26,156 nucleotides of DNA from a bacterium (GTDB taxonomy: Bacteria > Bacteroidota > Ignavibacteria > UBA10030): the NCBI GenBank assembly GCA_043803945.1, contig JAZDJN010000067.1, positions 1-26,156 on the forward strand, read 5' to 3'. The position numbers were made by a program, and so were the translations under genes. Below the pieces are notes generated by a model that was not told the DNA's origin, did no database searches, and was given only the letters and a program-made list of their open reading frames with translations. Positions 884-26,156 of the stretch are shown one piece after another (position 1 is the first letter of the stretch; the number at the start of each line of letters is the position of its first letter).

Positions 884-886
884 TAA

Positions 887-1503: not shown

Positions 1504-1944
1504 ATGATCGTCATTTGCACGATCTGTAATGTCCAGCACTCTGTTGCTCAGCCAATAACTCTGCAAAAACTGCTCGATCTCAATTTCGGCACCATTATCG
1601 CCGGGACAAATGCATTGGTCAATCACACTGATCCGACTGCCGCGAAATTCAGGGTTCGTTATTCTAAAAACGCCGCATTGCAGGTGACTTTTTCGCTACC
1701 AACGAATTTAAGCACCGCCTCAAGCAATTTGATGCCCGTTGCATTCCCGGCAGGAGCTGCAGCATGGGCAGATAAGGATCAGCTCACAGGAAGAACGACG
1801 TTCAATCCCCAAACAGGAACTTCATTTACCATGCCCAAAGATAAGGATATCTATCTCTGGCTGGGAGGATCGCTTTCTCCTCCAAGTTCGCAACAGGCAG
1901 GAACATACTCTGCCGTTGTTACCATTATTGTTACAGTATTATAG
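1504..1944 (+). CDS. DUF4402/Csu-like fimbrial subunit lacking the N-terminal extension
   Basis: SVA|QPITLQKLLDLNFG; C-terminal IYLWLGGSLSP...AGTYSAVVTIIVTVL. The true start may be upstream (CTG 1456 or ATA 1459, after GAGGAGGT at 1445-1452). Confidence 0.75.
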   Translation: MIVICTICNVQHSVAQPITLQKLLDLNFGTIIAGTNALVNHTDPTAAKFRVRYSKNAALQVTFSLPTNLSTASSNLMPVAFPAGAAAWADKDQLTGRTTFNPQTGTSFTMPKDKDIYLWLGGSLSPPSSQQAGTYSAVVTIIVTVL

Positions 1945-1951
1945 AGAGTCC

Positions 1952-2785
1952 ATGATCAACCTAACTTTCCGTTGCTTGATGTTTACTGCGCTCGTTCTCA
2001 TTATTGTGATGAACTCATTCGCACAGATCACGATTGCACCAACCTTAGTCATGATGAGCGACAAGAATCCGTATGGAATCTTCTTTGTCGCAAATGAAAC
2101 AACGACGGCGCAGGAGGTGACGGTCACATTCAGGTTTGGGTACCCTACTTCAGACACTCTTGGGAATGGCTATATGCAATATGTTGATTCTCTTGCGGAG
2201 CGTCAGTATTCCATCAACACCTGGATCCGTGCATTTCCCCAACGATTTGTCGTACAGCCTAATCAGCGTCAGATGATTCGAATTGTAGCCCGGCCTCCGA
2301 GACAAATTCAGCCGGGGCTTTACTGGACCCGTATTATCGTGGGATCGCAACCTGCCTCAACGCGGATTGATACGTTGACCGCTGGAATTTCGACACAGAT
2401 TACGTTTCGCCTGGAACAGATTACGACAGCCGCGTATAAACGTGGAACCGTTCAAACAGAATTATCGCTCGGGGATTTCCAGGTGCTGCAGGATACCGGA
2501 GCAGTTCACATTCTTGTTCCGATTAAACGGCTTCAGAATTCACCATTTTACGGGACGATATCCCTCCGTGTTCTCGATTCCACTGGGAAGGTGGTGGCGG
2601 AAGATTTTGAGGTCTCCTCAGTCTATTTTAATTACACCAAACGTTTTTCAATTCCACGAGGGAAGTTCGTCGGGAAAGAGTTTGAAGCTGAATTAAAGAT
2701 TATTTCTGAGCGATCTGACATTCCCAAGCAGGATGTTCCTCAGATTGCTCCGCTAACAAAAAAAATCAAGTTCACTCTGCAGTGA
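1952..2785 (+). CDS. Periplasmic fimbrial chaperone, PapD-like
   Basis: ATG 1952 gives a signal peptide (MINLTFRCLMF...SFA|Q). PapD-N-like motifs ITIAPT, FFVANET and WIRAFPQRFVVQPNQRQMIRI. About 277 aa, two-domain size, located between pilins and usher. Confidence 0.8.
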   Translation: MINLTFRCLMFTALVLIIVMNSFAQITIAPTLVMMSDKNPYGIFFVANETTTAQEVTVTFRFGYPTSDTLGNGYMQYVDSLAERQYSINTWIRAFPQRFVVQPNQRQMIRIVARPPRQIQPGLYWTRIIVGSQPASTRIDTLTAGISTQITFRLEQITTAAYKRGTVQTELSLGDFQVLQDTGAVHILVPIKRLQNSPFYGTISLRVLDSTGKVVAEDFEVSSVYFNYTKRFSIPRGKFVGKEFEAELKIISERSDIPKQDVPQIAPLTKKIKFTLQ

Positions 2786-2788
2786 TTC

Positions 2789-5413
2789 TTGCAACGACTC
2801 TTCTTCCATCATCTGGCCATTCTTCTGTTGTTCCTTACTGGACCTGCAGGACGGGTTCAGGCGCAGGATCGTCCTCAAGGGCAGCCTCAGGAAATTTTCC
2901 TGGAGTTTCGATTTAGCTCTGCGAACACAATTATCAATGCGTACCTTTATCGGGACACGATCTATCTTCCCATCGGCGAACTCTTTACTGCTCTGAAAAT
3001 CGATCATACAGTATCGATCGACAAGCGAACCGTTGCGGGAACCTACCTCGATCTCGAATCCTCGTTCCACATCGATTTGGCTCAGCATACAGCTGAGTAC
3101 CGCAGTAAGCAAACTCCAATCAGCGATTCAGAAGTACTCGTCACCGATGCAAATATATTTTTAACACCGCGTTTATATTTCGAGATCTTTAAAATGAAAT
3201 TCCTGCCGGATCTTTCCAATTTAAGCCTGGCCCTCGAATCGCCTTATCCGATGCCAATCGAGGAAGAATTTCAACGTGAGCTACGTCGAAAATCATTGGC
3301 TGTGCCCTTTGCCGTTCGACCATTTGCCCCCTTGTTGTTCACACCTCAGCGGGCGTTCTTTGATGGGGGATTCCTGGACTATAATGTTGTGGCGGCATTC
3401 AATCCCCAGAACCAGTCTATCACCTCCCAATTACGGGGCGGCAGTGAACTACTCGGCGGAGGACTTGAAATTGAATATCTCGGCTCTATTATCAATCAAA
3501 GAAGTCCAAGCTCCGCTGCGTTGGCACGCTGGAATTACATCTTTGAGCCAAATAAGCTCCTCACAGAGGTGAACATCGGGAACCTCAGTTCCGGGGGACT
3601 CAATCAGCATCAGTATCGGGGAATCGCACTCTCAAACGAACCAACGGAGATTCGAAGGTTTTTTGCCTTCTACCAGATAGAGAAAATTCTCTCTCCAGGT
3701 TGGGATGTGGAATTGTTTCTGAATAATCAACTTGTCTCATTTGCCAAACTCGATTCTGCAGGAAAATACGCGACTGAAATTCCTTTAGGATATGGAAGCA
3801 ATCAATTGGAGCTGCGATACTTTGGACTGAAGGGTGAACGGGGTGTTGAAACCAGGAGAATTGATATTCCCATGTCGCTTCTCCCAGCAAGAGAGTTGAT
3901 CTATGCTCTAAGCTTGGGGGAAGTATCGTATAGCGGTACGCGGATGGCTCAGGGAAACCTGATGTATGGTTTAACAGATTTCCTGACCACGACCGTAGGA
4001 GTCGACTATCTCTCCGAAACGAAATTCTCAAAACCGATTTTCTATCAAATGCTCTCCAGCCGTTTCTGGACATCCTATCTGGTGAATCTCGAGTATGCAT
4101 CCTCTTTACGATATGGCGGCAGATTGCGGGCGATCTATCAATCAAATGCAGGGTTCGAGGTTTCATATCTTAACTACCTGCACAACCTCTACTACAATCC
4201 CGCTGACCGAACATCCGAAATCAACGCATCAGGATTTTTCCCCACGATGATCGCTGGTATTCCATTCAATTATCGGATCACCGGTAATTTGACGAAGTTC
4301 GAACGGTTCTCACAATATCAATACAATATTGACGTCTCAAGTGCTTTCTACCCCTGGTATCTCGGCGCGGGATTGCAGCGCTATGCTAATCGAGGGATTT
4401 CAGACCGTTGGTTCGGAACAAGCAGCATCAGGACATTTGCGATCTATAGCGTTTCCTCCCAAGCCGGTGCCTTTGAATTTCTGAATGGTGCAATCATCAA
4501 TGGAACAGCTGATTTTTCCGTTTCCACCGGAACCCTTGAACGGATGAGTATCGATGGCGCTCAATCATTCCTGCCTCATGGAAGGATCCGGTTATCGCTT
4601 GATCATGATTTCCGGCTGCACTCGTCGGGTTTTTTTCTACTCCTGACCTTTGACCTGCCCACTACCTACTACACAACATCAGTGAGTGCTGCTCATACCA
4701 ACGCCTCACTGTATCACACTTTTAATGGGACCATCGGATATGACAGCAACCACGGAGAACTGCTTTTTCATAATCGGGGGGGAGTGGGGCGTTCGGCAGC
4801 AACATTTCTCATGTATGTGGATGCGAATGGCGATGGACAGTTCAACCAAGGAGAACAAATACTCCCGGATGTGAATTTCAATTTAAGTCAGTCAGTGGTC
4901 ATTGATAAGTACCCATCAGGAATGACACGTGTGCGGGAATTACTTCCCTATAATCGCTATAATGTGGAGATAAGCGATGCTTCAGAAGAGAATCCACTTA
5001 TTGTTCCCTCTGTGAAGGCGTTTTCATTTCTTACTCCCCCCAATCGTTATCTTCCCATCGATTTCCCTTTTTACACCTCTGCGATTTTTGAGGGTACCAT
5101 TCAGCGGAGCAGAGGGGGACAGTTCCTCCCGGTGCCGGGATTGAACGTCCATATTAGGGGAGCCAAGGAATTCCATAAGGAGATTCTGACCTTCTCCAAC
5201 GGGAGCTTTTATTATATGGGAGTCCCCCCTGGGGAATACATTGTCTCCCCGGATTCCGCGCAATTAAGAATTTTAAATGTGACGGCTGATCCGCCGCAGA
5301 GAACGATCACCATTGGATTCGGTGGTGAGGGTCAGTTCTTTACCTCCCTGGACTTCATTCTCTCCGATCGTGGTGAAACGAAACGCATTCCCGAGGGTGA
5401 AGCGAAGCGGTGA
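2789..5413 (+). CDS. Outer-membrane usher-like protein with C-terminal SdrD-B/carboxypeptidase-regulatory-like domains
   Basis: 874 aa, TTG start, signal peptide VQA|Q. Usher-like FFDGGFLDYNV and YRGIALSN motifs, and plug-like GWDVELFLNNQLV...EIPLGYGSNQLELRYFGLKGE. Long amphipathic aromatic beta-strand region, then YVDANGDGQFNQGEQ and TFSNGSFYYMGVPPGEYIV. Confidence 0.75.
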   Translation: MQRLFFHHLAILLLFLTGPAGRVQAQDRPQGQPQEIFLEFRFSSANTIINAYLYRDTIYLPIGELFTALKIDHTVSIDKRTVAGTYLDLESSFHIDLAQHTAEYRSKQTPISDSEVLVTDANIFLTPRLYFEIFKMKFLPDLSNLSLALESPYPMPIEEEFQRELRRKSLAVPFAVRPFAPLLFTPQRAFFDGGFLDYNVVAAFNPQNQSITSQLRGGSELLGGGLEIEYLGSIINQRSPSSAALARWNYIFEPNKLLTEVNIGNLSSGGLNQHQYRGIALSNEPTEIRRFFAFYQIEKILSPGWDVELFLNNQLVSFAKLDSAGKYATEIPLGYGSNQLELRYFGLKGERGVETRRIDIPMSLLPARELIYALSLGEVSYSGTRMAQGNLMYGLTDFLTTTVGVDYLSETKFSKPIFYQMLSSRFWTSYLVNLEYASSLRYGGRLRAIYQSNAGFEVSYLNYLHNLYYNPADRTSEINASGFFPTMIAGIPFNYRITGNLTKFERFSQYQYNIDVSSAFYPWYLGAGLQRYANRGISDRWFGTSSIRTFAIYSVSSQAGAFEFLNGAIINGTADFSVSTGTLERMSIDGAQSFLPHGRIRLSLDHDFRLHSSGFFLLLTFDLPTTYYTTSVSAAHTNASLYHTFNGTIGYDSNHGELLFHNRGGVGRSAATFLMYVDANGDGQFNQGEQILPDVNFNLSQSVVIDKYPSGMTRVRELLPYNRYNVEISDASEENPLIVPSVKAFSFLTPPNRYLPIDFPFYTSAIFEGTIQRSRGGQFLPVPGLNVHIRGAKEFHKEILTFSNGSFYYMGVPPGEYIVSPDSAQLRILNVTADPPQRTITIGFGGEGQFFTSLDFILSDRGETKRIPEGEAKR

Positions 5414-6231: not shown

Positions 6232-6327
6232 CTTCCATCGATATCGTAAGTGGACATTTCATCGGATTATTATAGCAACCCCTAGTAATGGGAGAAGTCC
6301 ATTTTTTTTTAAGTGAAAGGTAACTGT

Positions 6328-6735
6328 ATGAAACCTGTCAGAATTCTCATCGCCGACGATCATAAAGATTTTCGCAGTGTGGTTGAGAGGTTTCTCCGCA
6401 ATCTTCCATCTGTAATGGTTGTCGGCGAGGCTTCCGATGGCGTGGAAGTTGTTGAGAAGGTCGAGGAATTGAAACCCGATCTCGTGTTGATGGATATCGC
6501 GATGCCCCAGCGCAGCGGACTCGAAGCGACGCGCATCATCAAGCATCAGTGGCCGGGTGTGCAGGTCATCATCACAACAATGTATGACTATCCGATCTAC
6601 CGGATGCAGGCGCAAGAGGTGCATGCGGATCAATTCGTACTGAAGTCGGCATTGAAATCGAATCTCGAATCTGTCCTTGGCATTCCGCCGAATGGTACAA
6701 AAACAGAAGAATTCGTACCGCCACTTATCAAGTGA
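6328..6735 (+). CDS. Stand-alone response-regulator receiver protein (NarL/FixJ-type REC, no HTH)
   Basis: ATG 6328 follows GAAAGG. Motifs ILIADDH, VVGEASDG, PDLVLMDIAMP (phospho-Asp), Thr in IITTM and Lys in FVLKS. The protein ends shortly after the REC domain. Confidence 0.9.
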   Translation: MKPVRILIADDHKDFRSVVERFLRNLPSVMVVGEASDGVEVVEKVEELKPDLVLMDIAMPQRSGLEATRIIKHQWPGVQVIITTMYDYPIYRMQAQEVHADQFVLKSALKSNLESVLGIPPNGTKTEEFVPPLIK

Positions 6736-6814
6736 TATCCGTCCATTAAGTCAGAGTCAACAATGATTGCGACGGATAGAATACCATATAATTCAATTCA
6801 GAAAGGAGATCAGC

Positions 6815-7219
6815 ATGTCTGCTCTCAAAGTGCTCGTTGTAGATGATCACGCAGGATTTAGAAAATCACTGGCTAAATTTCTTCAGTCACAACGGAATGT
6901 CGAGGTGGTCGGAGAAGCAGTCGATGGTGCAAATGCCATTGCACAAACAGAACGACTGAAACCGGATCTTGTCATTCTCGATCTGGAGATGCCTGATCGT
7001 GATGGATTTGAAACGGCTCAGGTCATTAAGCGACAATACCCGGGTACATACCTTGTTCTTCTCTCGATGCATGGGAATGACATCTATCGGCTCAAAGCTC
7101 GTCAATGCATGGTCGATGGATTTATTCACAAAACCCACTTGAAGGAGGGTCTTCTGATGATTCTTCGAAATCGAGAAAACAACATGGTGTCTACTGCACA
7201 GTATGCAAGTGTTGCCTAG
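6815..7219 (+). CDS. Stand-alone response-regulator receiver protein (NarL/FixJ-type REC, no HTH)
   Basis: ATG 6815 follows AAGGAG. Motifs VLVVDDH, VVGEAVDG, PDLVILDLEMPDRDG, Ser in LLSMH and Lys in FIHKT. No output domain. Confidence 0.9.
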   Translation: MSALKVLVVDDHAGFRKSLAKFLQSQRNVEVVGEAVDGANAIAQTERLKPDLVILDLEMPDRDGFETAQVIKRQYPGTYLVLLSMHGNDIYRLKARQCMVDGFIHKTHLKEGLLMILRNRENNMVSTAQYASVA

Positions 7220-10300: not shown

Positions 10301-13300
10301 CAATGATTTTGAGGTAGCGCTTACGGGAAATCACTCTGCGTACTTCGTATCAGTCAATGCGCCAGGCAATTCTGGAACAACATTACTCGATATCGGAACA
10401 TTTTCCCTGAGTATCGGAGGTACAGGCCTGAATATTGAGGGAAATGATGCCGATGATCGCATTGCACGCGTACGCGTTGCAGGCGGAACACTGTCGGTAT
10501 CGGATAACATTCGTTTTATTGCAAGCACCGATGCCAGGGTCGTACTGGACATCAGCTCCGGTGCGAGTACACTTAATATCGGGCGTGCGATGGTAAAGAA
10601 CACTGCCGGAACGTTCTCTCCCGGCATCTCAAGCACTGTCGTGTTCAATGGTTCATCCGCCCAATCGATTAATCTCTCGGGCTTCACGTATGCCAATGTG
10701 ACGGTGAATAATAACGCCGGAATCTCACTGCTTGGAAATGTGACGTCGGCTAACATAGCCGGAAATCTTCGTGTAGTGGGTGGCACACTCAATAACAATG
10801 GATACTCTATAAATGGAGATCCTCTCAAGACATTTGAAGTAGCAAACGGCGCAACGTTTATTCTCGGTTCTACCTCGGCATTTCCAACCGGGTTTGGGAC
10901 GGTCTCACTCGGAGCGACAAGTACCGTCAACTATAACGGTACCAATCAGACAATTAGTGAAGAGTTATATGGAAATCTGACACTCGGTGGGAGCGGCAGC
11001 AAGACGATCCAATCGCCGCTTGCCATCCAGAGAACACTCCATCAGACAGGAACTACAACCTCGTCGCTTTCCTCGACTTCAGGGTACGATATCATTGTCG
11101 GGAAGGTTTTGATTGACGGAGGAACCTTTATTGACAACGGTCGCACGATCGAGGTTACCGGAACCGGATCCGGAACATGGACAAAAACGGGTGGGACATA
11201 TACAGCAAACGGCACCACGGTATTTTCCGGCAGTGCACCGGAGATCGGGGCATCGAATTTTAGCACGCTCCAAATCTATGTCGGATCCGGAAATGTTGCA
11301 ACTGCTGTTGGTGCATTGACTCCGAATACTCTCACCCTGACGAGCGGAACATTTGATCCCGGATTGTACACCCACACAGTAAGCTCAAACCTCTCTATCG
11401 AGGGGGGATCAAAATTGTTAGTTCGCTCAGCATTGTACAGTGGAAATTACTCCCTCATTCCCACTATGATTCAATCGGGCAGTACGATAGAATATACAGC
11501 TACAGGTGCAACGGTTGCCGCTGTCTCACCGGAACAGTATGAGAATCTCACAATCAGCGGCACAGTCACGGGTGCTTCTACTGCCACTGTCAACAGTACG
11601 TTCCTGGTCTCCGGAACGTTTACACCATCGGGTGGGACGATTACTTTCGGAAACGGGTCATCGCTTAGCGGTACAGGTACTACGCAATTTTCAAGTCTCT
11701 CCATTGCAAATAGCGCAACGGTCACGGCATCAAATGTCTTTAGCGTTGGTGGAACATTGTCCGTCGGCTCGGGAGCAAGCTTCTCTCCCTCGAACACGGT
11801 GACTCTGAACAGCGCCACGATCGTAAACTCAGGAACGCTCACATTCCAAAATGTTTCGCTTATCGGTACGGTCACTGCGAACACCAGCTTTACGCTTAGT
11901 GGATCGATGTCGGGTGCCGGTACTCTGAATGCAACCAGCGGGACAATCACCTTCGGTAACGGATCATCACTCGCAACAAGCGGGAGTGTCTCCTTCAATA
12001 ATCTGACCATCAATGGTACCGTTGTAGCGAACACTTCGTTTGGTGTGAAAGGGACGTTAAGTGTTAATGCAGGTGGTGTTCTTAATCCTACGAGCGGCAC
12101 TGTTACCCTGTCGAATGGAAGCAGTATCAGTAACAGCGGTACTCTCTCATTCAAAAACCTTAGCAGCAGTGGTACAGTCAACATCAACTCAAACTTTACA
12201 CTCAAAGGAACCTTTACTAACACCGGTACGATTAATCAGACCTCGGGGATATTCTCGACGGCCGCCGGCGCAGTGATGAATAACAGTGGTACGTTATCGC
12301 TCAACAACCTTACAATCGGCGGTGCAACCACATTGAACGATAATGCAACTGTGAGTGGTACTCTGACCCTGGACGCGAATCTTACGGTGGTTGGAGATTC
12401 ACTAACAATGTCTTCCAGCGCAGTTACCGGTGGAACCGCTGATGTCATCGGCAGAATCCGTCGTACGCCCTTCACAACGGGTACGGCATATACGTTCGGT
12501 AATCAGTATACGACGATCACCTTCAATAGTGCAACCGTACTGCCGAGTTCAATTGTTGTGAAGGCCGCGATCGGTTCCTCCCCGATTGAAAAATCCGACG
12601 CTGTCCACCGGTACTACGAGATTACCGAAACGGGAGGAAGCGGATTTAATGCGACGCTCCGGCTGCATTATCTCGACTCCGAATTGAATTCAAACTCGGA
12701 GGGAATACTCTCACTCTGGAAAAAGAGCGGTACCACGTATGTCGAGGAAGGAAATATTTCTCGAGATCAGACCGCGAATTGGATTGAGCAATCTGCTGTC
12801 GATACGCTGACGACAACCTGGACGCTGGCAGTTGAGACGCCGACTGGATTCACAGCGGCCACAGACGGTTTCTGGGATGCGCCTGCAACCTGGGGTCTCA
12901 CCGGCACTCCGCAAGAGGGCGTGAACTACCCCGGTGTCAACGACAATGTCAACATCAGTAATAACTATACTGTCACGCTCCGTGCCAACCAGTCGGCAAA
13001 GAAAATTATCTTGGTCTCTGCCGGCGCAAATGGTACGTCAACATTGGCTGTCGGTTCGTATACACTTACTGTAGGCACAGGAGGAATCGAACTTCGCGGC
13101 GGCCGCCAGAACGGACGAAAAGTTCTGATCACGGTCGGCGGTGGTATTCTGAATATTGCGGGGAACATCTTTATCGATGCCAAATCAATCGCGCAGGCTC
13201 AAATTGATCTGACTGGGGGAGTCGGTAGCCGAATAAATATTACGGGAGATATTTCGCGGAATGACGACAACGACGGAGCGTTAACATTCAATTCTACCGG

Positions 13301-19300: not shown

Positions 19301-21998
19301 CATAGGAGCGCTGCCGCAAATCTATTCCTCCAATTTTGATACGCTCGAAATTGCCGTTGGAGCAAGCGGACGCGCAGTTGCCTCGGGCATCCTCAGCTCT
19401 TCGCAAATGTTCTTAACGACCGGCACATACGATCCGGGTGTGTTCGGACATACGATCGTCAATAACTTTATTCTCTCTAATGGCACAACGTTGCTGGTTC
19501 GGGGTGCAGAATTTGTAACGAATTACAGCAAGGTCCCGACGAATGTCGGTGCATCCAGTGCCGTTGAGTATAGCAGTAGTGCAATCCAGACGATCAACTC
19601 GACATTTACGTATGGGAAACTTCGACTCGAGGGCGGCGGCTCCAACGCGAAAAGCGCAGGTGGAGCATTGACGGTGTTGGATAGTACGATCATCAGTTCA
19701 GGCTCGACGTTTAACGGTGTATCGTACAACCATCGGATACGCGGAACCTGGAGGAATGAAGGTACCTACGTCTCCAGCACGGGCACCATCACACTTAATG
19801 GAACTGCTGCACAAACGATCGCCGGAACGAGTGCCACCTCCTTCAATAATCTGGTGATGAACAATACCGCAGGTTTAACGATCAGCACAAGTCCCACCGT
19901 CATCGGTACCTTGACCTTCACGAGTGGCACGATCAACACTGGATCGAACAAGATTACCATTGCTGCGTCGGGAGTAGTGTCACGGACCAGCGGTCATGTA
20001 GTCGGCAACTTCGAAAAATATATTGCCGCCGGTGCAACCACCAGGACATTCGAGATTGGCGATGCAACGAATTATACTCCTGCACAGATTGCTTTTTCGA
20101 GTGTCTCCACAGGTGGCTACCTCACCGCCCGCACAGACCCTGGAGATCATGCCGATATCGCGAACTCTGGAATTGATCCTGCCCTCAGTATCAACCGGAC
20201 ATGGACAGTGACAAATAACGGAATCAGCTTCACGACGTATGGTGCGACATTTACATTCGTTCCGGGTGATCTCGATGGCGGTGTTGTTACGGGTGACATT
20301 GTTCTTGCCAAACTGGATGGCATAACCTGGACCAGCCCGACGATGGGTACTGTTACAGCGACGACTATGCAGGCGACAGGGATTACTGGCTTCAGCAAAT
20401 TCCAGGGGGGCAATCCGAGTGTTGCCGATTTCACCTCGATCACAACAGGCAATTGGAATTCCGCTTCGACCTGGGATAAAAATAGAGTCCCGAAGAAAAA
20501 TGATAGAGTCACCATTGCGGCATCGCACACAGTAACGTTGACGGATGCCAGGGAGATAACAAATTTGAGCGTGGCTGCTACTGGTGAATTTGCCATTGGC
20601 ACAAATACGCTGACCGTTTGGGGCAATATTATCCTGAATGGAACCTGGAGCGGCAGCGGTATGATCGATTGGAGAAACAACGGTACATCACTGGGTGGCA
20701 CCGGCACGACGAGCGGCACGCCCATGCTTCAGGCCAATGGCGATAAATCCATTGATGTTTCTGCAACCCTCACACTCTTCCGCATTGATATACCTGCTGC
20801 AAACGCCGTGACAAATAACGGGGCAATTCAGCTTACACGCCTGACAGGCGGGGTTGCGGGGTCTACCTGGATCAATGCCGCTGGTTCAAGCTTATCAGTT
20901 ATTCAAGATCTTCTGACAACCGGTACACTCACGACCCTTGGTGTGGGGAATACACTCACCTACAGTGGTAACACGGCACAGACGGTTAAAGCTATCACAT
21001 ATCAGAATATTGCATTCAGCGGTTCAGGTACTAAAACTCTTTCTGCCGATCTGACTGTACAGGGAGATTTCATAAACTCGTCAACGGTATCAGTCGGAAC
21101 ACATTCATTGTCTATAAGTGGTACAAGGACAAACTCCGGAACAGTCCAGTTTGCGGGGGCGGCGAATGGAGTGCTCTTTACGGATGGTACGGTAGAGTAT
21201 AACGGCACGAGTGTTACTCAAACAATTGCGAGCGGTATATACAACAACCTCACACTCAGCGGATCGGTAGGAAAGACTGCCGGCGGCGATGTAACTGTTA
21301 ATGGGAATTTCAACAACTCCGTTACGACTTCGGTAGGCAATTCTCTTCTTGTAATATCCGGTACGAAGACAAATAGTGGCACAATGCAATTTGCCGGTGC
21401 GAGTAATGGCATCTTGTTCGCAGATGGCACAGTTGAATACAACGGAACTACTTTAGCACAAACAATCACCATCGGGACGTATAATAATCTCACACTCAGC
21501 GGCACAACCTCTAAAGCAATTCCGGCAGGGACATTAGGGATTGCTGGAATATTCACGGTATCGGGAGTCTCTGTCGATGCTACATCGAATAATTCGACGA
21601 TAGACTATTTTGGCAATGGCGCTCAGTCTATTGCCGCAATCGCCTATCATCATCTGACACTGAGAAATAGCGGAACTAAAACTTTTTCCTCAGGGACAAC
21701 TTACATCGGTGGTAACCTAACGATCAGCGCTCCTGCCGCTGCCAATGCAACGACAAATTCGTCAACGATTGAGTATAACGGTACAACGAGCCAGTCAATT
21801 GCCGGTATGACGTACCATCTGCTCAACTTCTCAGGCAGCGGATTAAAAACTCTTTCAGCAACGATGACTGTAAACTCTCACCTGACTGTCAATGCAGGTG
21901 CATCTGTGCTGGTCACCAACACAGGTCTTATCAATCTTCAGGGTGATTTGTTGAATGATGGATATTTCAGAAATGATGGAACGATAATTCCATTTTAG
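7302..21998 (+). CDS. Giant secreted repeat protein (4898 aa), predicted beta-helix/beta-sandwich modular adhesin or filament terminal subunit
   Basis: Uninterrupted 14.7-kb ORF. Hydrophobic signal region ends ALG|Q (Q at 7509); the exact start is uncertain. Thr/Ser/Gly/Asn-rich. Six G8-like W-x-x-x-x-T-W...P...D-x-V-x-I heads and recurring Y-x-G-x-x-Q...Y-x-x-L-x-LSG-x-G-x-K motifs. Confidence 0.9.
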   Translation: MVRRRSISPTQDRRSAATHREAVWLIGLVLSLIENLLERFSRSTTLSRRSLLPFVLLLFVLGMTAEALGQAVFQANAGGGLWNNSGTWTLASGTDADGIPDADDQVTIAGGNLAVTLNGNEACSSLLVQNTGANSTSTRLEIGSYTLAVAGNVTITGGGGNGSKIAQINVGNGILIVSGNLTISAVKGSELNLNLGTSTLNISGSMTGGTNAVLNAGTASTVNLNGTSAQTLNLVDFIFANVTLNNSAGVTANAAITATNITGDLRVETGTFASGGFAIAGNGAKTFEVAGNASFITTTVNPSAFPTGFSISLNANSTVDYAGLTGTTQTVSDQTYGNLKLSGGGTKSAGSAISVAGTLTQTEATTTATLSGTTGHDLTVGKFDLQAGSFNDNGRTITVTGTGSAVWTKAGTFNPTGTTIFTGAAPQIGASNFAALQINVGSGNSALANGILTVTNFALLSGTFNPGLFAHTISTNFSLGSGSTLLVRTALFTGNYSKNPTSVANGSTVDYQGTNSSLANFTHSNLIVSGSITGSSNATVDGAFTVTGSFTPSVGAVRLGNSTIVNSGTLQFRGLELTAGAFVQSSSNFLIDSAMTLLSGASFSPTGTITLNNGVTLANAGTMIFHNLTLNSGALIANTDYSVNGTLSGAGTFNATAGTVTFGNLSSLTISGLSFQNLTFSGAVTANVDMTVKGTLTIGGAGVFNPSSGTVTIPAGGSIVNSGSLSFNNLNTSGTGSVTMNTSFTLKNSFTNMSTITINQTSGVLTTISGASINNSGSLTLSNVTIGGTTTANGTVTVNGAVTLNGNLTVSGGALIMGSSATTNGTFDIIGGVRRGGFIIGTTYSFGNPFTTLTFDTGGTLPDSITYTIQIGSAPVEKTDAVQRSYSIAILNGSGYSASFHLHYRHGELNGNSESAMYLYRKNGSVYQPAGRSAFNTTDDWIGLNNVSTIAGDWAIANKPAHIFTASNDGAWNNPATWGLSGTPSEGETYPGPVDSAYIGNDFEVALTGNHSAYFVSVNAPGNSGTTLLDIGTFSLSIGGTGLNIEGNDADDRIARVRVAGGTLSVSDNIRFIASTDARVVLDISSGASTLNIGRAMVKNTAGTFSPGISSTVVFNGSSAQSINLSGFTYANVTVNNNAGISLLGNVTSANIAGNLRVVGGTLNNNGYSINGDPLKTFEVANGATFILGSTSAFPTGFGTVSLGATSTVNYNGTNQTISEELYGNLTLGGSGSKTIQSPLAIQRTLHQTGTTTSSLSSTSGYDIIVGKVLIDGGTFIDNGRTIEVTGTGSGTWTKTGGTYTANGTTVFSGSAPEIGASNFSTLQIYVGSGNVATAVGALTPNTLTLTSGTFDPGLYTHTVSSNLSIEGGSKLLVRSALYSGNYSLIPTMIQSGSTIEYTATGATVAAVSPEQYENLTISGTVTGASTATVNSTFLVSGTFTPSGGTITFGNGSSLSGTGTTQFSSLSIANSATVTASNVFSVGGTLSVGSGASFSPSNTVTLNSATIVNSGTLTFQNVSLIGTVTANTSFTLSGSMSGAGTLNATSGTITFGNGSSLATSGSVSFNNLTINGTVVANTSFGVKGTLSVNAGGVLNPTSGTVTLSNGSSISNSGTLSFKNLSSSGTVNINSNFTLKGTFTNTGTINQTSGIFSTAAGAVMNNSGTLSLNNLTIGGATTLNDNATVSGTLTLDANLTVVGDSLTMSSSAVTGGTADVIGRIRRTPFTTGTAYTFGNQYTTITFNSATVLPSSIVVKAAIGSSPIEKSDAVHRYYEITETGGSGFNATLRLHYLDSELNSNSEGILSLWKKSGTTYVEEGNISRDQTANWIEQSAVDTLTTTWTLAVETPTGFTAATDGFWDAPATWGLTGTPQEGVNYPGVNDNVNISNNYTVTLRANQSAKKIILVSAGANGTSTLAVGSYTLTVGTGGIELRGGRQNGRKVLITVGGGILNIAGNIFIDAKSIAQAQIDLTGGVGSRINITGDISRNDDNDGALTFNSTGIINFNGTSGGQTLDVTGSIYANIYLNNTSSAGVVLDGAITTVNVIGDIRLQSGTFNTNGFANAGNTGKTFELTNGTTLYLSGVSTFPTGFTPSIGSTSTINYSGGAQTISDQAYGHLTLSGTGAKTINSSISVTGNFTYSATATTSLSATAGQNLTASMFTLSAGTFIDSGRTITVTGTGGQVWTKTGGTFTATGIVNITGAAAQIGSSNFATLSINVGIGNTALANGALSTATFTLTTGAFDPGTHTHTISGSFTVGDGTTLLVRTTTFPGNYSSNPTTQPGSIIEYTNAAASISNAFTYRNLKISGNVTGAASATVIEQFIVSGSFTPATGKMIFNNGASIVNSGAVTFRKLQISNSATVTTASSFSITDSLIVGQNAIFQPSGTVSFVTSGSIDVNPTLLNEGILTFNNLSISAPVHTSSSFTIGGTLDILVNGELNPTGGTTTMTGGSSIVNSWILSFYKLRITGSVTANTNFSVKDSLIVSASGTLQQTSGTVTLENGAKVGNSGSLTFYTLSIAGAVSANTSFSIASSLSVTSSGNLTSTAGTVTMNSGTSISNLGTLNLNNLTIAGGTITGNNNFSMQGVLQLDGNLAMGSNTFEFGSTATSGGTGDVTGRVKRAHVFTASTAYAFGSQYTTVTFTSLTSAPGSITINIIKGSTPPEKVDAIQRYYDITSSGGTYAATLRLRYLTGELNGNDASTLSLWAKVGVSSYADSGKTTNDLVNNWVEDAGITSIVGTWTLSRQNPIGFTAVATGNWNDPATWGRSGIPTEGVNYPGPSDSANIINNVTVTLTGNHSAKNLRVEAPTLDGTSRLDVGAYTLNVGSSGLKIAGGTSDARIATVTIASGKISVLGDVTLQGSSAVRSVLDMSLGANSILEVGGSLSKSGSPTFTPGSSGIVNFNGTTAGQIVNVTSFVYTNLRLNNTSGSGVTLSAAITGTNVTGDVRVQSGIFTNSGYAITGNSGKTFEVANGASFYLTGSSAFPTGFGSISLGSTSTVNYSGGSQSISNQSYGNLTLSGTGNHNITSSLSAAGTLTYSSSGATSLSGTAGHNVTAAKFNQTSGTFNVNSRTITITGTGASTWSKTGGTFAATGEVIFTGSAPEIGASNFDLLRINLASGGVATATGILSATNFYLTSGTFDPGTSLHTITTNFTLAAGTTMKVKTSTFGGNYSKAPTTITTGSTIEYTNTTSTLATLTSPTYSNLKVSGTVTGSSIASINDTLIVSGTVINPGGTITLNNGGRIRVDGGSLTFTNLTTAASATAGSASNFAVAGTLTVGAASTASFTGTVTMNGGSIISNTSGALTFGTLSISGTVTANTNYTISTALSVGLSGVLSPTSGTVIFSNTSSITNQGVLELYDATFSGITSTSSNFSVKNAFSVSASSSFAASGGTVSMLSSSSITNSGTLTFSGLRIDAGTVTSSSSFSISGLLTVASGATFNPAAPCTITMNNGASITRDGTSTFTNLAIAAGTVTGNTNLAVSGTLTLNGTLAMGSNILDLTAATAAIAGTGDVTGNVRRQHAFASSTSYAFGNQFTTLNFASGTLPTSITFTIALGTAPAEKTDAIQRKYSVSVTGGSGYSATLRLHYLDTELNGNTSSTLTLWNKSGASYADQGRTGSVDETNKWVEKASLTSLIGDWTLANQPSVGFTATVTGNWNTPATWSLTGSPQEGVNYPGPTDIVNVNGGFTVTLTANHSAQRVNITGTIAGAAIINVGANTLSVGSGGITLTGGSTDARYACINVDGGTLNVTGNIVYSTGIAARAVVNLGGVGGSAASTMNLGGVMSKSTAGTFTPGSASVVNYNSSALNQTVDVINFTYANLHINNMNASGASLNAAVTAVNVTGNLRVQSGQFSNSGFGIAGNPTMTLEVAAGATLKLTGTSTFPTGFGTISLNAASTVEYNGGAQTVTNQSYGNLILSGNGSKTIASALNVGGRFTYNSSAATSLAAGGLTTSKFTLASGTFSANSAKITVTGTGDSVWIKSGGTFTATGKVSFIGALPQIYSSNFDTLEIAVGASGRAVASGILSSSQMFLTTGTYDPGVFGHTIVNNFILSNGTTLLVRGAEFVTNYSKVPTNVGASSAVEYSSSAIQTINSTFTYGKLRLEGGGSNAKSAGGALTVLDSTIISSGSTFNGVSYNHRIRGTWRNEGTYVSSTGTITLNGTAAQTIAGTSATSFNNLVMNNTAGLTISTSPTVIGTLTFTSGTINTGSNKITIAASGVVSRTSGHVVGNFEKYIAAGATTRTFEIGDATNYTPAQIAFSSVSTGGYLTARTDPGDHADIANSGIDPALSINRTWTVTNNGISFTTYGATFTFVPGDLDGGVVTGDIVLAKLDGITWTSPTMGTVTATTMQATGITGFSKFQGGNPSVADFTSITTGNWNSASTWDKNRVPKKNDRVTIAASHTVTLTDAREITNLSVAATGEFAIGTNTLTVWGNIILNGTWSGSGMIDWRNNGTSLGGTGTTSGTPMLQANGDKSIDVSATLTLFRIDIPAANAVTNNGAIQLTRLTGGVAGSTWINAAGSSLSVIQDLLTTGTLTTLGVGNTLTYSGNTAQTVKAITYQNIAFSGSGTKTLSADLTVQGDFINSSTVSVGTHSLSISGTRTNSGTVQFAGAANGVLFTDGTVEYNGTSVTQTIASGIYNNLTLSGSVGKTAGGDVTVNGNFNNSVTTSVGNSLLVISGTKTNSGTMQFAGASNGILFADGTVEYNGTTLAQTITIGTYNNLTLSGTTSKAIPAGTLGIAGIFTVSGVSVDATSNNSTIDYFGNGAQSIAAIAYHHLTLRNSGTKTFSSGTTYIGGNLTISAPAAANATTNSSTIEYNGTTSQSIAGMTYHLLNFSGSGLKTLSATMTVNSHLTVNAGASVLVTNTGLINLQGDLLNDGYFRNDGTIIPF
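7518..20429 (+). repeat. Five diverged tandem protein modules within the giant ORF
   Basis: Module heads at 7518 (FQANAGGGLWNNSGTW), 10191 (FTASNDGAWNNPATW), 12849 (FTAATDGFWDAPATW), 15552 (FTAVATGNWNDPATW) and 18258 (FTATVTGNWNTPATW), with a sixth head at 20430 (FTSITTGNWNSASTW). Spacings are 891, 886, 901, 902 and 724 aa. Confidence 0.9.
21000..21479 (+). repeat. Tandem 240-bp (80-aa) duplication in the C-terminal region of the giant ORF
   Basis: ISGTRTNSGTVQFAGAANGVLFTDGTVEYNGT versus ISGTKTNSGTMQFAGASNGILFADGTVEYNGT. Unit-initial Tyr codons fall at 21000, 21240 and 21480. Confidence 0.85.
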
Positions 21999-22070
21999 GT
22001 GATCGAACTATGAAAAAAGAATTTGAGATCAACTCATATGAATAGATTCATTACGGAGAGGAGTACTTCC

Positions 22071-23462
22071 ATGAAAACCTTCTTATCTCACAGAGTGAGC
22101 AAAGCAACCCCATTGTTTTTGTTGCTCACACTTGCTCTAAAAGTGGGATTCGCACAAGGAGTATTGAAGAATAACGGTACGTTCGTTAACACCGGTACCT
22201 CGACTTATACCCGGATTGAAAATTTCAAGACATCAGCAGGAACAATTCTCAATTCGGGTACGCTGAACAGCACCACGACATTTCTCAATCAAAGCGGTGG
22301 ATTAAACGGAAAAGTACTCAATTATATTGGCTCGGGTGGTGGGACGATTAATGTCACCACTAATCTCGATAACAACGCAGCCGGAGCGATCTTTGATAAT
22401 GATAGTCTGACACTTTCAACGGTATTGCGTGTTGGTGGATCCATTACGAATGCAGGGACATTCGATACAGACACAGGGAAAGTAGAGTACAATGGAGCCG
22501 GTGTGCAGACTATTATTGCTACAACGTATGGGGCTCTCGTCACGAGCAATGCAAGCGCGAAATCAATTGCCTCTGGAACGACGACCGTGAGGGATTCCAT
22601 ACGTATCGCCGGTTCGTCAAGCATCGTAACGAGTACTAATACTCTTTCTTTTAGTGGAGCGACTTTTACACTGCAAGGAACAGGCGCCCTGGATGCATCG
22701 TCCGGTACAGTGAATTATTCCGGTGACCGAGACCAGCAGATTATCGCCGGTACATACGGCACACTGATCACTTCCGGCTCAACGACTGCAAGAACGAAGA
22801 CAGCCACCGGTAATGTGACACTCAGTGCTTCCGGTTCCCTGACAGTGGGGAACAATGATACTCTCAGTGTAACAGGGAATCTGAATCTTTCCGCTGCGGG
22901 TGTGACGCTAACGAATAACAATGTCATCAAGATGGGTGGTAATGCGACATTTGTTGGTACGATTACTAGTGTCGGGTCATTCTACTATGCCGGTTCGGGT
23001 TCACAGAACATTGGTACAAATACTTACGCAACTCTTCGGCTGGGTGGCAGCAGCACAAAGACATTTCCTAACGGGACTGTGGCAGTCACGAGTAATTATA
23101 CGATTGACAATGGGAGTGGCAGCCGGGATTACACTTCCAATACGAGCACCTTCCAATTTGCAGGAACCAGCGGTACACAGACGATCTCCGGGCTCTCCGA
23201 AACATTTTACATACTTCAGTTTGCCGGTGCGGCCACGAAACCGATTTCAGGGACATCGCTTGGAGCGGCACGGCTTGATATTCTCGCCACCAGCGGGCTC
23301 GTCACGAATAACGTAACCACGATGACGTTGACTAATATTTCTAACATTAGCATGACGGTAGCTTCTGGAGCATCATTCCAGAACAACCAGGCGATTTTAT
23401 TTAACGGTGATATCGAAAACGATGGAGTCTTTACAAACGCAGGTACGGTTACAGCTAACTAA
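22071..23462 (+). CDS. Secreted beta-helix repeat protein related to the C-terminal region of the giant protein
   Basis: ATG 22071 follows GAGGAG (22058-22063); signal peptide ends GFA|Q. Repeats VEYNGAGVQTIIATTYGAL, VNYSGDRDQQIIAGTYGTL and YYAGSGSQNIGTNTYATL. Ends GDIENDGVFTNAGTVTAN. Confidence 0.85.
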   Translation: MKTFLSHRVSKATPLFLLLTLALKVGFAQGVLKNNGTFVNTGTSTYTRIENFKTSAGTILNSGTLNSTTTFLNQSGGLNGKVLNYIGSGGGTINVTTNLDNNAAGAIFDNDSLTLSTVLRVGGSITNAGTFDTDTGKVEYNGAGVQTIIATTYGALVTSNASAKSIASGTTTVRDSIRIAGSSSIVTSTNTLSFSGATFTLQGTGALDASSGTVNYSGDRDQQIIAGTYGTLITSGSTTARTKTATGNVTLSASGSLTVGNNDTLSVTGNLNLSAAGVTLTNNNVIKMGGNATFVGTITSVGSFYYAGSGSQNIGTNTYATLRLGGSSTKTFPNGTVAVTSNYTIDNGSGSRDYTSNTSTFQFAGTSGTQTISGLSETFYILQFAGAATKPISGTSLGAARLDILATSGLVTNNVTTMTLTNISNISMTVASGASFQNNQAILFNGDIENDGVFTNAGTVTAN

Positions 23463-23467
23463 CGATG

Positions 23468-23754
23468 AACATTCACAACAATATGAAAGGAGGTTCCTAT
23501 GCGAACCGATCAATGCAGACCGCCTTAGGTCAAGGGGAGTCAGCTTCAGCGTTGCTCTCTGAGCAAGAGCAATGTATCTATTCACTATTAATTATTTACT
23601 CGCCTAAAGGTAACGCATGGCGGGCAAGCTATTCACAATTTCAAAAGGAGCTACAACAATGTCGTACAAACAAGAAACACCACAGGGAAAAAGCAACAAG
23701 CATTCACAATTCACCCACAATTCACAAACACATTCTAAAAGGAGTACAGTCATG
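23468..23754 (+). promoter_or_regulatory. Leader region with three ATTCACAA...AAAGGAG...ATG units
   Basis: Units end in ATG at 23499, 23659 and 23752, each 7-8 nt after an AAAGGAG. ATTCACAA or close variants occur at 23471, 23580, 23631, 23702 and 23720. Confidence 0.55.
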
Positions 23755-25377
23755 AATACCAAGTCAATCATCGCAGCCATCGTTACCCTCTTCTTAATCG
23801 TCGGAGTGGCATCTGGACAAAAAATCAAGAACAAATCAACATTTACCAACAATGGTATAATGTCTGTAGGGACGTTCCAGAATTATAATGGAGCTGCTGG
23901 TACATTGGACAACAATAATGGAGCAACCCTCACAGTCTCGGCGCTTCTAGATAACAAGTATAACGCAGCCACAGTCAATAACCTGGGTACGATCACTATG
24001 ACAGGGGCAAGTACATTTGATAATAGTTTGTCAGGTGGAATCGTCTCCAACACAAGTAACGGTCTAATCAACATGTCAGGTGCCACCAGTGTTTATGATA
24101 ACACAGCTGGAACTACAACAAATTCTACCACAGCAGCGGGTAAGGGATTCAGGTTTGTAAATGCAGCTGGAGGGGCATTAGTGCCAGGTTCGGGTTTCAC
24201 AACTTCCTCGGGTAGAGTTGAATATGCCGGTACGGGTGGAACAGTCTATTCAGGAGTTGCAACTGGTACATATGGTAAACTCGAAATTAACACATCAGGA
24301 ACACGAACGATGGATAACTCAATCTCTGTGGGAGATGTGACCCTGACTGCCGGAACCTTCGATGTCGGTAGTGGCTATAAGTTGACAGTAACAGGGGTTG
24401 GAGGGGTAGCAGGAGCTGGTGCTTTGACAGCTAATGGGAGTACGACCACTGAGGTTGATTATGCAGGTCCCGATGGACAACCGATTAAATCTACTACGTA
24501 TGCAAAACTGACTCTGAGTGGTGCTGGCACACGACAAAAGACGATCAGTGGCGATGTGACCGTTGCTAATGCACTTAAAATCGATGCGGGTAATGAACTT
24601 CTTATTCCTGAGACCCCATCTCTCTATACCCTAACACTCAACAGCAGTTCAGTCCTGGACAACTCAGGTTGGGTTCGTATTTATGGCGACATTTCTTTTG
24701 GATCCTCGATGACTCTCACAGCCATTGGTTCATTTGAGTATGGACGAGTAGCTGCAGGTCAAGTTGTAAAGCCATTTTCATATGCTAATTTGACTTTGTC
24801 GGCTGGAGCAAAAACGATGGGTGTCGCTCCTGCTGATGCGATCTCAGTTTCTGGTACATATAATGCAGGCGCAACGGCTGATTATCGCAGCAACACAACG
24901 TCATTCACTTATGCAGGCGGTGGTGCCCAAGATGTCCGTGCCGGTAACTACTATACTTTAGCGATGACGACGGGGGGAGCAAAGTCGATTGGAGCAGGCG
25001 TTGCTGTTGAAGCAAAAACTGTTACAGTTGCCACTGGTGCTCTTACTATTGATGGAACAGGGTCATTACAAGTTGGCTATACTGGACAAAATGGAAGCAT
25101 GTCGATTTCGAGCAACTTCACTAATAATGGTGACTTAACACTCGGACACAACAATGCTTCACCGACATTTTATGCATCCCTCACGTTCTCTGGTGCAACT
25201 CTTACGAATAACTTAAACATAAGAGTATTTGGCAGTGATGCGTTGGGAACGTACTTCTTACAGAACGATGCAACAACTGAATTAGTCAACAGTGCTACGG
25301 GCGTCATTGCATTAAAGGCTGCGGATTTTGTGAACAATGCTTCATTTTCGAATGCTGGCAGTATCACGGTTGAATAG
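23752..25377 (+). CDS. Secreted beta-helix repeat protein, candidate major filament subunit
   Basis: ATG 23752 follows AAAAGGAG and gives a canonical signal peptide MNTKSIIAAIVTLFLIVGVASG|Q. Repeats VEYAGTGG...YGKLEI, VDYAGPDGQPIKSTTYAKLTLSG and FTYAGGGAQDVRAGNYYTL. Ends ADFVNNASFSNAGSITVE. Confidence 0.85.
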   Translation: MNTKSIIAAIVTLFLIVGVASGQKIKNKSTFTNNGIMSVGTFQNYNGAAGTLDNNNGATLTVSALLDNKYNAATVNNLGTITMTGASTFDNSLSGGIVSNTSNGLINMSGATSVYDNTAGTTTNSTTAAGKGFRFVNAAGGALVPGSGFTTSSGRVEYAGTGGTVYSGVATGTYGKLEINTSGTRTMDNSISVGDVTLTAGTFDVGSGYKLTVTGVGGVAGAGALTANGSTTTEVDYAGPDGQPIKSTTYAKLTLSGAGTRQKTISGDVTVANALKIDAGNELLIPETPSLYTLTLNSSSVLDNSGWVRIYGDISFGSSMTLTAIGSFEYGRVAAGQVVKPFSYANLTLSAGAKTMGVAPADAISVSGTYNAGATADYRSNTTSFTYAGGGAQDVRAGNYYTLAMTTGGAKSIGAGVAVEAKTVTVATGALTIDGTGSLQVGYTGQNGSMSISSNFTNNGDLTLGHNNASPTFYASLTFSGATLTNNLNIRVFGSDALGTYFLQNDATTELVNSATGVIALKAADFVNNASFSNAGSITVE

Positions 25378-25650
25378 TTTTAAGAAAAAGATAATTTACT
25401 CTACTTGGAGGGAATGCTAGCATCAGAAGTAGCGCACCTCAAATATGAGTGTTAGTGGAAATCATCATTAAAGAATGATGAAGGAATCATAGGTAGAACA
25501 TATGTACTATCAATGAGACCAAACATATGGAACAACCAATAAGGACCATACCGGCGCGTCCGCACGCGCAGGTTTACGAACTGGCGTTACCTCGTGGGAG
25601 TACTCTGTCCATTAAGCTGGGAGGTCCGGAGGATTCGCCTAATAAGTTGA

Positions 25651-25700
25651 GAGGGAGCTCCGCCATTAAGACGGGCAAGTCCGCTCCCAATCTTCGCGGG
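25651..25700. repeat. REP-like palindromic element A, copy 1
   Basis: GAGGGAGCTCCGCC...ACGGGCAAGTCCGCTCCCAATCTTCGCGGG matches the copy at 26104-26156. Confidence 0.7.
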
Positions 25701-25718
25701 TGTAGTCCGCCCATCCTG

Positions 25719-25975
25719 GAACCTTCCGAAGGTCACAGAGGTGGCCTTAGGAACCTTCGGAAGGGCGGTAAGTTCGCACGCGAAACAATTTCCTGCGCAC
25801 GCGGTGATCCGAAAAACAAACACCCTCTCCTCGTAGGAGAGGGAAAGGGTGAGGTTGCTCCACGCGGTGATCCCGGAAAGATTGAACCTTCCGAAGGTAA
25901 CAGCGGTGACCTTAGGAACCTTTGGAAGGCCGGTAAGTTCGCACGCGAAACGATCGCGAATACGCGCGGTGATCC
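25719..25975. repeat. Two 92-bp direct repeats (REP-like element B) at 25719-25810 and 25884-25975, flanking a third hairpin type
   Basis: GAACCTTCCGAAGGT...CCTTAGGAACCTT(C/T)GGAAGG.CGGTAAGTTCGCACGCGAAAC...CGCGGTGATCC occurs twice with a 165-bp period. Between the copies lies CCCTCTCCTCGTAGGAGAGGGAAAGGGTGAGG (25823-25854). Confidence 0.8.
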
Positions 25976-26103
25976 AAACCTTTTGAATGTCGGTCATCGT
26001 GAGGTTGACGTGGGAACCCCATGGTTGAAGGTAACCTTCAGCTATGGAATATCTCAGAGGAAGGTTACCTTCTTCAGCGCAGAACCGCCTCTGTACCTAT
26101 TGG

Positions 26104-26156
26104 GAGGGAGCCCCGCCAAAATAACGGCGGGCAAGTCCGCTCCCGACCATCGCGGG
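26104..26156. repeat. REP-like palindromic element A, copy 2 (reaches the window edge)
   Basis: GAGGGAGCCCCGCCAAAATAACGGCGGGCAAGTCCGCTCCCGACCATCGCGGG, with nested stems GGGAGC/GCTCCC and CCCGCC/GGCGGG. Confidence 0.7.

Follow-up and report, generated by a model that had tools for sequence, protein, structure and literature searches.

Complementary end rungs point to a probable cell-anchored, heteromeric beta-helix fibre encoded at a giant-protein locus in the Ignavibacteria

The window analysed here, a stretch of 26,156 nucleotides (nt) that makes up the entire contig C67 (JAZDJN010000067.1) of a 5.5 Mb Ignavibacteria genome (GCA_043803945.1), carries a gene for a giant protein followed on the same strand by genes for two smaller proteins, A and B (Table 1). 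The nearest relatives of this genome are metagenome-assembled genomes of Ignavibacteriales. On balance we favour the reading that the locus encodes a polar, cell-anchored, heteromeric surface fibre, with the giant at the tip, one or more connectors in the middle and a stalk anchored by way of type IX secretion (the T9SS) at the base. The evidence for this is a short motif placed at the ends of the proteins, its conservation, the order of the genes that carry it, and a predicted beta-helix fold in which the end of A stacks in register onto the start of the putative anchor.

Results

The giant, A and B share a motif at their ends

The mature N-termini of A (VLKNNGTFVNTGTSTYTRIENFKTSAGTILNS) and B (KIKNKSTFTNNGIMSVGTFQNYNGAAGTLDNN) align without gaps, with 11 identities in 32 positions and a BLOSUM62 score of 59. 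Of the 195,774 gapless 32-mer pairs that the two mature proteins can form, just 2 reach this score, which ranks first of 487 against B. A preliminary description of this DNA, made from its letters, had quoted this alignment, and both of its strings are exact. It had also held that the first rung of A and B has the pattern of a motif at the C-termini, and that the giant is single-ended, with the motif at its C-terminus and none at its N-terminus; both statements hold. Four copies of the strict motif, [hydrophobic]-x-N-x-[GS]-x-F-x-N-x-G, are present in the 5902 residues of the three proteins, and each of them is terminal, at residue 4883 of 4898 in the giant, at residues 32 and 448 (of 463) in A and at residue 25 in B, while the C-terminus of B has the relaxed form FVNNASFSNAG. 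Three weaker variants lie in the interior of the giant. In similarity to the N-terminal 16-mers, the C-terminal 16-mers equal or exceed 97.8–100% of 5652 interior 16-mers, and in the comparison of the C-terminus of A with its own N-terminus none of the 5652 scores equally high, so the resemblance goes beyond what rungs have in common generally. Genome-wide, among 11,118 six-frame open reading frames (ORFs) of at least 100 amino acids (aa), the C-terminal motif ends just three proteins, namely the giant, A and B.

The motif is conserved in orthologues of A and in other double-ended proteins. About 40 orthologues of A were found, at about 50% identity, and in the 30 that were aligned N34, N40 and N51 are invariant together with the four C-terminal residues given in Table 1. 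The stop codon always falls 5 residues past the last N-x-G, and when 417 windows of 19 residues along A are ordered by conservation, the two terminal ones come 2nd and 8th. Only 6 relatives of B were found by database search; across 12 divergent double-ended proteins (~30% identity) the Asn residues of the motif (N27, N33 and N44 in B) are invariant.

The three proteins are paralogues by BLASTP. A and B share 28% identity (E 5e-15) in an alignment that is gapless from the signal peptide through the N-terminal rung segment, residues 119–460 of A match residues 4603–4895 of the giant, in its last ~300 residues, at E 3e-13, and B matches the giant at E 6e-14. No meaningful Pfam or NCBIfam match was found for any of them; rows for Amnionless (E 0.0026) and for an OXA-like family (E 0.015) lay far under the cut-offs and were discarded. 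A opens at the ATG at 22071 behind the ribosome binding site (RBS) GGAGAGGAG, and B at the ATG at 23752 behind AAAGGAG, both of them good sites. All three proteins have Sec signal peptides. The mature N-termini of A and B probably start at Gln (Q29 and Q23, respectively), 1–3 residues ahead of the first strand, which fits the Q-rule (Gln at +1), reported at 77% for Ignavibacterium album (PMC5837995).

Orthologues in the database (P0006, P0008, P0011, P0012 and others) are often annotated 30–45 residues too long. The cause is an in-frame upstream ORF that runs through the RBS, with AAAGGAG read as K-R-S, and yields a spurious '...KRS.VM' prefix; the corresponding stretches of this reading frame in the window are 22023–22070 and 23617–23751.

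A neighbouring contig encodes a putative anchor

The window overlaps contig C65 of the same genome: its final 141 nt are identical to the reverse-complemented end of C65. About 1.6 kb beyond this overlap lies a gene on the minus strand (L015:2222–8257; G000:C65) for a protein of 2012 aa whose mature N-terminus, A|EGGNLKNNGTINNTGTIRVKN, is the same rung, and which carries the N-terminal motif only. Behind the rung come a short beta-helix, a beta-sandwich domain, 11 Big_1 immunoglobulin (Ig)-like repeats (E 1.4e-64), a dockerin-like segment and, at residues 1925–2009 of 2012, a sorting domain of T9SS type A (TIGR04183; 27.3 bits, the cut-off being 23). PF18962 scored 18.9 bits in a protein hmmscan and 25.3 bits in a six-frame genome search, both under its 27-bit cut-off. 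This protein, which the preliminary description lacks, would be a fourth partner with a single end, namely a stalk of Ig repeats anchored through the T9SS; we refer to it as the anchor.

The giant has a long leader ending EALG|Q, which is followed by a W-x-x-x-x-W head. The head motif, G-x-W-N-x-(P)-A/S-T-W, appears again at residues 970, 1856, 2757, 3659 and 4383, the first four recurrences being ~900 aa apart. Neither the N-terminal motif nor a T9SS sorting domain was found in this protein. A segment of the form L-H/R-L-H/R-Y...ELNGN, taken to be a beta-sandwich domain, lies at residues 900, 1786, 2686 and 3588 of the giant and occurs once in the N-terminal domain of the anchor (SIKRYYDI...ELNGQ...LWRS).

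The gene order recurs in related loci

We compared 14 related loci found in public genome and metagenome data, limiting each count to loci with the flanking sequence concerned. Upstream sequence is available for 10 loci, the window included, and in all of them the A orthologue is directly preceded by a giant with the C-terminal motif. Sufficient downstream sequence is available for 7 (window and C65 included), and all of these have a protein with the N-terminal motif downstream. Where this downstream protein is complete (5 cases), it always ends like a T9SS sorting domain. In none of the 6 close loci for which downstream sequence is available does a B-like gene lie between A and the anchor. 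Seven more divergent loci, in other genomes of the class, have the same order with 1–4 different middle subunits in fixed succession, and in these the C-terminal h-T-N-x-G-T-h-x-V end persists. The recurrent arrangement, then, is a large protein with the C-terminal motif only, followed by 1–4 double-ended subunits and by a protein with the N-terminal motif and a T9SS tail. All loci with sufficient flanks, 6 close and 7 divergent ones, conform to it.

The relatives of the giant differ in how they end. The last 499 residues of the giant match 26 other proteins at E<=1e-3, 8 of which end in the rung motif, while at least 7 carry a precomputed Por_Secre_tail domain (PF18962) instead (P0061, P0063–P0065, P0067, P0070 and P0072). 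A profile search of 1.84 billion representatives returned 1317 relatives at E<=1e-3. Of the 150 that matched best, 47 have the C-terminal motif by regular expression, 21 of them with the N-terminal motif as well and typically 450–560 aa long; 32 have sorting-domain ends by an ad hoc hidden Markov model, and 62, many of them fragments, have neither type of end. The regular expressions miss some true cases, so that counts of this kind are lower bounds. The locus type appears to be moderately widespread, in several genera of Ignavibacteria-like Bacteroidota.

Predicted structures of A, B and the A–anchor pair

AlphaFold2 (AF2), given a 30-row alignment, predicts A as an all-beta protein with a mean predicted local distance difference test score (pLDDT) of 91.4 and a predicted template modelling score of 0.87. 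The model is a right-handed parallel beta-helix with strands from residue 29 to residue 462 of 463. At both ends four-residue strands follow every six residues (29–33, 37–40 and 43–50; 435–462), and neither end of the model has a capping helix or loop. Structural comparison by VIA-align gave Z 12–16 for right-handed beta-helices, supporting a predicted adhesin fold of this type: EtpA (8vba) at Z 15.8 and a root-mean-square deviation (rmsd) of 6.9 Å over 395 residues, pertactin (2iou) at Z 14.9 and 4.0 Å over 243 residues, MpAFP at Z 13.8 and HMW1 at Z 12.5, with tapirin and tailspikes also in this range. The left-handed helices of LpxD and GlmU were matched only at an rmsd of ~12 Å. A Foldseek search against the PDB returned nothing at E<=1e-3 and only weak solenoid rows, among them CsgA (8c50, E 0.04), and in the ESM Atlas the feature matches (0.88) were under the meaningful level and the structural rows say merely beta-helix. 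B, modelled by AF2 from a 12-row alignment, reached a pLDDT of 76.6, with confidence over the N-terminal two thirds, and the rung pattern at its N-terminus is the same.

We modelled a complex of A (residues 29–463) and the N-terminal domain of the anchor (residues 45–290), with own alignments on both sides and three controls. The interface score ipSAE was 0.83, 0.82 and 0.83, a mark attained by 116 of 157 solved complexes and by 2 of 215 mismatched pairs, against 0.00 for the best of the three controls. The runs agreed in 100% of contacts, and the pLDDT of the partner was 90. In the model, residues 422, 425, 432 and 444–463 of A lie on anchor residues 45–64, the first 20 of the mature protein, and the contacts of lowest error are in register (N450/N50, F454/I54, N456/N56, G458/G58 and V460/I60, A named first). 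The ends of A are thus predicted to be open, and A is predicted to meet the anchor at a confident interface, a result that speaks for binding but is no proof of it.

Export signals and translocators

The genome encodes SprA (TIGR04189), in a 2285-aa frame with 1016 bits summed, and has 149 Por_Secre_tail matches; the search covered these two families. No T9SS sorting domain of Pfam or NCBIfam was found in the giant, A or B, which end in the 16–18-residue rung motif instead. Likewise, none of the three matched the two-partner secretion domain PF05860, the autotransporter barrel PF03797 or PATR, and no gene for a two-partner or autotransporter translocator was seen in the ORF lists of the locus. 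Pilins of the chaperone-usher or type V kind, which act by donor-strand exchange, were rejected as a class for A and B, both of which are modelled as beta-helices and not as Ig folds. Within the full texts searched, nothing relevant was found on hitch-hiker export through the T9SS.

Discussion

In the fibre that we favour, each subunit would be a Sec-exported right-handed beta-helix with uncapped ends, and each end would amount to about one helix turn made of two x-h-x-N-x-G hexapeptides and a final strand. The C-terminal turn would stack in register onto the N-terminal turn of the next subunit and continue the helix across the joint, placing Asn on Asn, Gly on Gly and hydrophobic on hydrophobic residue. 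The polarity of the fibre would follow the gene order. The giant, with a capped head and a C-terminal end only, would thus be the distal tip, its W-rich head facing outward. A would be a connector with both ends, and B a second, lineage-specific subunit of this double-ended kind. The 2012-aa protein has the N-terminal end only, followed by the Ig stalk and the sorting domain, and would therefore be the base fixed to the surface. A T9SS-anchored fourth partner argues for a cell-anchored polar chain as opposed to a free curli-like polymer, and the presence elsewhere of several distinct middle subunits in fixed order argues for a defined chain. The assembled chain would reproduce the layout of head, beta-helix, stalk and sorting domain seen in the single-chain relatives of the giant. 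We infer that the subunits probably bind each other in the cell and would assemble in gene order, and that the fibre would lie on the surface, where it may serve in adhesion. As a speculation, assembly might take place in the periplasm and be followed by joint export with the anchor through the T9SS.

Several points weigh against this reading. The termini of A are only moderately more conserved than its interior (mean top-residue fraction 0.75–0.76 versus 0.67), and the N-terminal motif is degenerate in the divergent loci, for example GKLVITGGTFVGTG. No fused relative with an internal junction of C-terminal and N-terminal motif was found among 222 fetched proteins (an internal repeat in P0055, picked up in that search, is unrelated). 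Export is the weakest point, in that the giant, A and B have no known outer-membrane export signal of Pfam or NCBIfam that would explain a location on the surface. Structure predictors readily stack the edges of beta-strands, and the controls of our docking were unrelated proteins as opposed to other uncapped beta-helices. The last ~130 residues of B, including the C-terminal rung, are poorly modelled, and for the giant–A, A–B and B–anchor pairings the argument is the similarity of the motifs. Finally, the join between C67 and C65 is an overlap of k-mer size inside a repeat-rich spacer, and we therefore relied on the synteny in other genomes as well.

A bolder form of the same idea is that the locus encodes a new class of surface appendage, a 'spliced' beta-helix fibre, in which a giant adhesin is made as 3–6 polypeptides joined non-covalently in gene order, each completing the helix of its neighbour at the uncapped end rungs, with the sorting domain on the last only and co-export through the T9SS. 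With the sorting domain confined to the last piece, the whole rod would be assembled in the periplasm and exported with its anchor. This would be the first hitch-hiker secretion by the T9SS, and the fibres would have naturally exchangeable adhesin tips. We put this forward tentatively, as a possibility that is more likely to prove wrong than right.

Curli are among the closest known parallels: their subunits are open-ended beta-solenoids that stack through ladders of Asn and Gln, and a cell-attached subunit sits at the base of the fibre. The preliminary description had proposed a curli-like head-to-tail polymer in which B forms the shaft and the giant caps one end. One part of this is upheld by the A–anchor model (ipSAE 0.83), in which open ends are predicted to stack in register with Asn ladders, whereas membership of the curli system is not. 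The curlin repeat PF07012 has no match in A, B or the rest of the genome, which is estimated to be 100% complete, while an E. coli control matches; for CsgG (PF03783) there is likewise no match in this genome, and the control matches in 4 of 14 genomes. A shaft made of B is at odds with its absence from the close loci and with its few relatives. The likeness, drawn here from sequence and models, is in the open beta-solenoid ends, the Asn ladders and the cell-attached base. The differences are that curli subunits are five-repeat solenoids of ~130 aa, whereas those of this locus would be right-handed beta-helices of 435–4800 aa, that the stacking motif is limited here to two terminal turns, and that the chain would be heteromeric and polar and end in a T9SS-anchored protein. 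The fibre is thus curli-like in its stacking principle only.

A true homopolymer, in which A or B polymerises into a shaft of indefinite length, capped at one end by the giant and nucleated or anchored at the other by the T9SS protein, seems to us unlikely. A and B do each carry both complementary ends, and the N-terminal 16-mer of A is matched best by the C-terminal 16-mer of A itself, with no interior 16-mer as high; moreover, the C-termini of the giant and of A show no obvious difference in specificity, and the A–anchor model supports stacking in register as such. Nonetheless, 1–4 different paralogous middle subunits in fixed order would be needless if one of them polymerised, B is missing from every close locus with downstream sequence, and the genome is without curlin repeats and CsgG.

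It is rather doubtful, in our view, that the ends do not dock at all and that the terminal rungs nucleate or stabilise the folding of each beta-helix, the proteins remaining separate and their similarity reflecting domain duplication. The autochaperone region of autotransporter passengers would be the analogue of such a role. The C-terminal module of the giant, A and B are paralogous, so common descent could account for the end motifs that they share; conservation is good in the interior too, predictors over-predict the stacking of beta-edges, and the subunits that lack a sorting domain have no known export route. What this leaves unexplained is that the mature N-terminus always lies within 1–3 residues of the first strand, that the proteins always stop 5–7 residues past the last N-x-G, that the last gene always combines the N-terminal end with a cell anchor and the first always has the C-terminal end only, and that an anchor is missing from the giant itself, in spite of the T9SS domain present in relatives. 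Still less probable is a new secretion or sorting signal in the C-terminal 18 residues, read by an outer-membrane factor and resembling the N-terminal rungs by chance: its extreme C-terminal position and fixed spacing, the terminal aromatic residue of 17 of the 30 A orthologues and the giant (Phe in the giant, Tyr in most A orthologues; compare beta-signals) and the need for some export signal would fit it, but the last residue is not constant (Y, N, E, Q, P and F are all found), the motif is modelled as the last helix turn and not as a separate element, the same pattern stands at the N-termini of the downstream partners, and the loci contain no conserved candidate gene for a receptor. Both of these explanations account for less of the pattern of single- and double-ended proteins along the operon than the fibre does.

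Other known systems share parts of the proposed design. Giant fibrillar adhesins of Bacteroidota that are secreted as single chains by the T9SS belong to the same beta-helix repeat family and have the layout of head, rod, stalk and sorting domain; here 3–4 polypeptides would take their place, with complementary rungs replacing the peptide bond and the sorting domain on the last polypeptide alone. Two-partner and autotransporter beta-helical adhesins (EtpA, pertactin, HMW1, TibA and Fap2) include the best structural matches of the A model (EtpA, pertactin and HMW1), and differ in being single chains whose ends are capped or tethered to the membrane. Beta-rich rods joined end to end also form the long tail fibres of phage T4, although these are trimers joined by dedicated domains and have no sequence or family relation to the proteins of the locus. 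Fibres of ice-nucleation proteins, too, are reported to consist of beta-rich rods that associate end to end (PMC10727499). They differ in being self-associating products of single genes, and are likewise related neither in sequence nor by family. No description of such a multi-subunit beta-helix fibre was found within the full texts searched, and in that literature the system appears to be undescribed.

If the proposal is right, long surface fibres can be built from separately encoded beta-helix modules by a general and simple route that needs no pilin chaperone, sortase or amyloid nucleator, uncapped complementary ends being sufficient. It would raise the question of whether the T9SS exports pre-assembled complexes with a sorting domain on one subunit. 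The joints of such fibres would also offer protein engineering a natural source of beta-solenoid connectors, whether orthogonal or promiscuous. Members of the family are far from rare, as the 47 of the best 150 representatives that end in the C-terminal motif indicate, and the giant, A and B match no family of Pfam or NCBIfam.

Further features of the window and related loci

Table 1. Positions of genes, terminal rungs and other features (in the window unless a locus is named)
Feature	Position	Strand	Remarks
Three DUF4402 genes and two large family-less ORFs	353-5413	+	Pfam
Single-domain response regulator 1	6313-6735	+	Pfam Response_reg, E 1.3e-25
Single-domain response regulator 2	6767-7219	+	Pfam Response_reg, E 2.6e-24
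Giant, 4898 aa	7302-21998	+	
Giant, C-terminal rung motif LLNDGYFRNDGTIIPF	21948-21995	+	Residues 4883-4898
Protein A, 463 aa	22071-23462	+	
A, mature N-terminal rung Q29-N51, QGVLKNNGTFVNTGTSTYTRIEN	22155-22223	+	Directly after predicted signal peptide
A, C-terminal rung G446-N463, GDIENDGVFTNAGTVTAN	23406-23459	+	G446, G452, N456 and G458 invariant
Protein B, 541 aa	23752-25377	+	
B, mature N-terminal rung Q23-Y46, QKIKNKSTFTNNGIMSVGTFQNY	23818-23889	+	Modelled strands 24-27, 30-33, 36-44
B, relaxed C-terminal rung AADFVNNASFSNAGSITVE	25321-25374	+	N528, N534 and G536 invariant in alignment A3
Repeat-rich spacer, like repetitive extragenic palindromes, running off the contig end	25378-26156	.	
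Gene of 252-283 aa in divergent loci	L016:1044-1799, L018:17435-18211, L019:16706-17476, L020:3456-4304, L021:3772-4605		

The pair of response regulators lies directly upstream of the giant gene, as it also does in L004 (337–1289) and L005 (3136–4048), and in L003 one such regulator is visible ahead of the giant gene. Genes for a histidine kinase and a regulator of LuxR type precede the pair in L005, which suggests that expression of the proposed fibre is regulated.

In the divergent loci the anchor gene is followed by a conserved gene whose product has a hydrophobic C-terminal segment ending ...KK.PP.E (last row of Table 1). It matches no Pfam family, is absent at that position in the genome of the window, and could encode an accessory factor.

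The spacer between B and the anchor gene, ~2.4 kb long (25378–26156 of the window together with L015:8258–10000), is an array of imperfect palindromes, among them hairpins of CCTTCCGAAGG, and contains a 95-nt unit that recurs at 165-nt spacing. At least 10 other contigs carry dispersed copies of its repeats, and it interrupted the assembly. A search of the window and L015 against Rfam returned no family. The equivalent spacer in related loci is also without a plausible gene and translates to odd Arg/Pro-rich ORFs.

Near the start of the window, three DUF4402 genes (353–1944), of which the third matches the Pfam family at E 3e-8 and the other two are under the cut-off, are followed by ORFs of 348 aa and 874 aa, in a layout like that of small fimbrial gene clusters (subunits, chaperone, usher). 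No relatives of the two ORFs were found in Pfam, NCBIfam or PDB sequences. These genes form a cluster separate from the fibre genes, and it is not kept beside the giant in L005.

Matches to the locus were also seen in a groundwater metatranscriptome. Two sister runs gave no contig matching it, and run X1 gave four contigs of 210–315 nt that are 100% identical to the window, at 11157–11366 (giant), 23428–23742 (A/B junction), 23867–24117 (B) and 25418–25661 (spacer), and that cannot show transcription or rank the genes. They do place the same or a very close strain in that groundwater sample.

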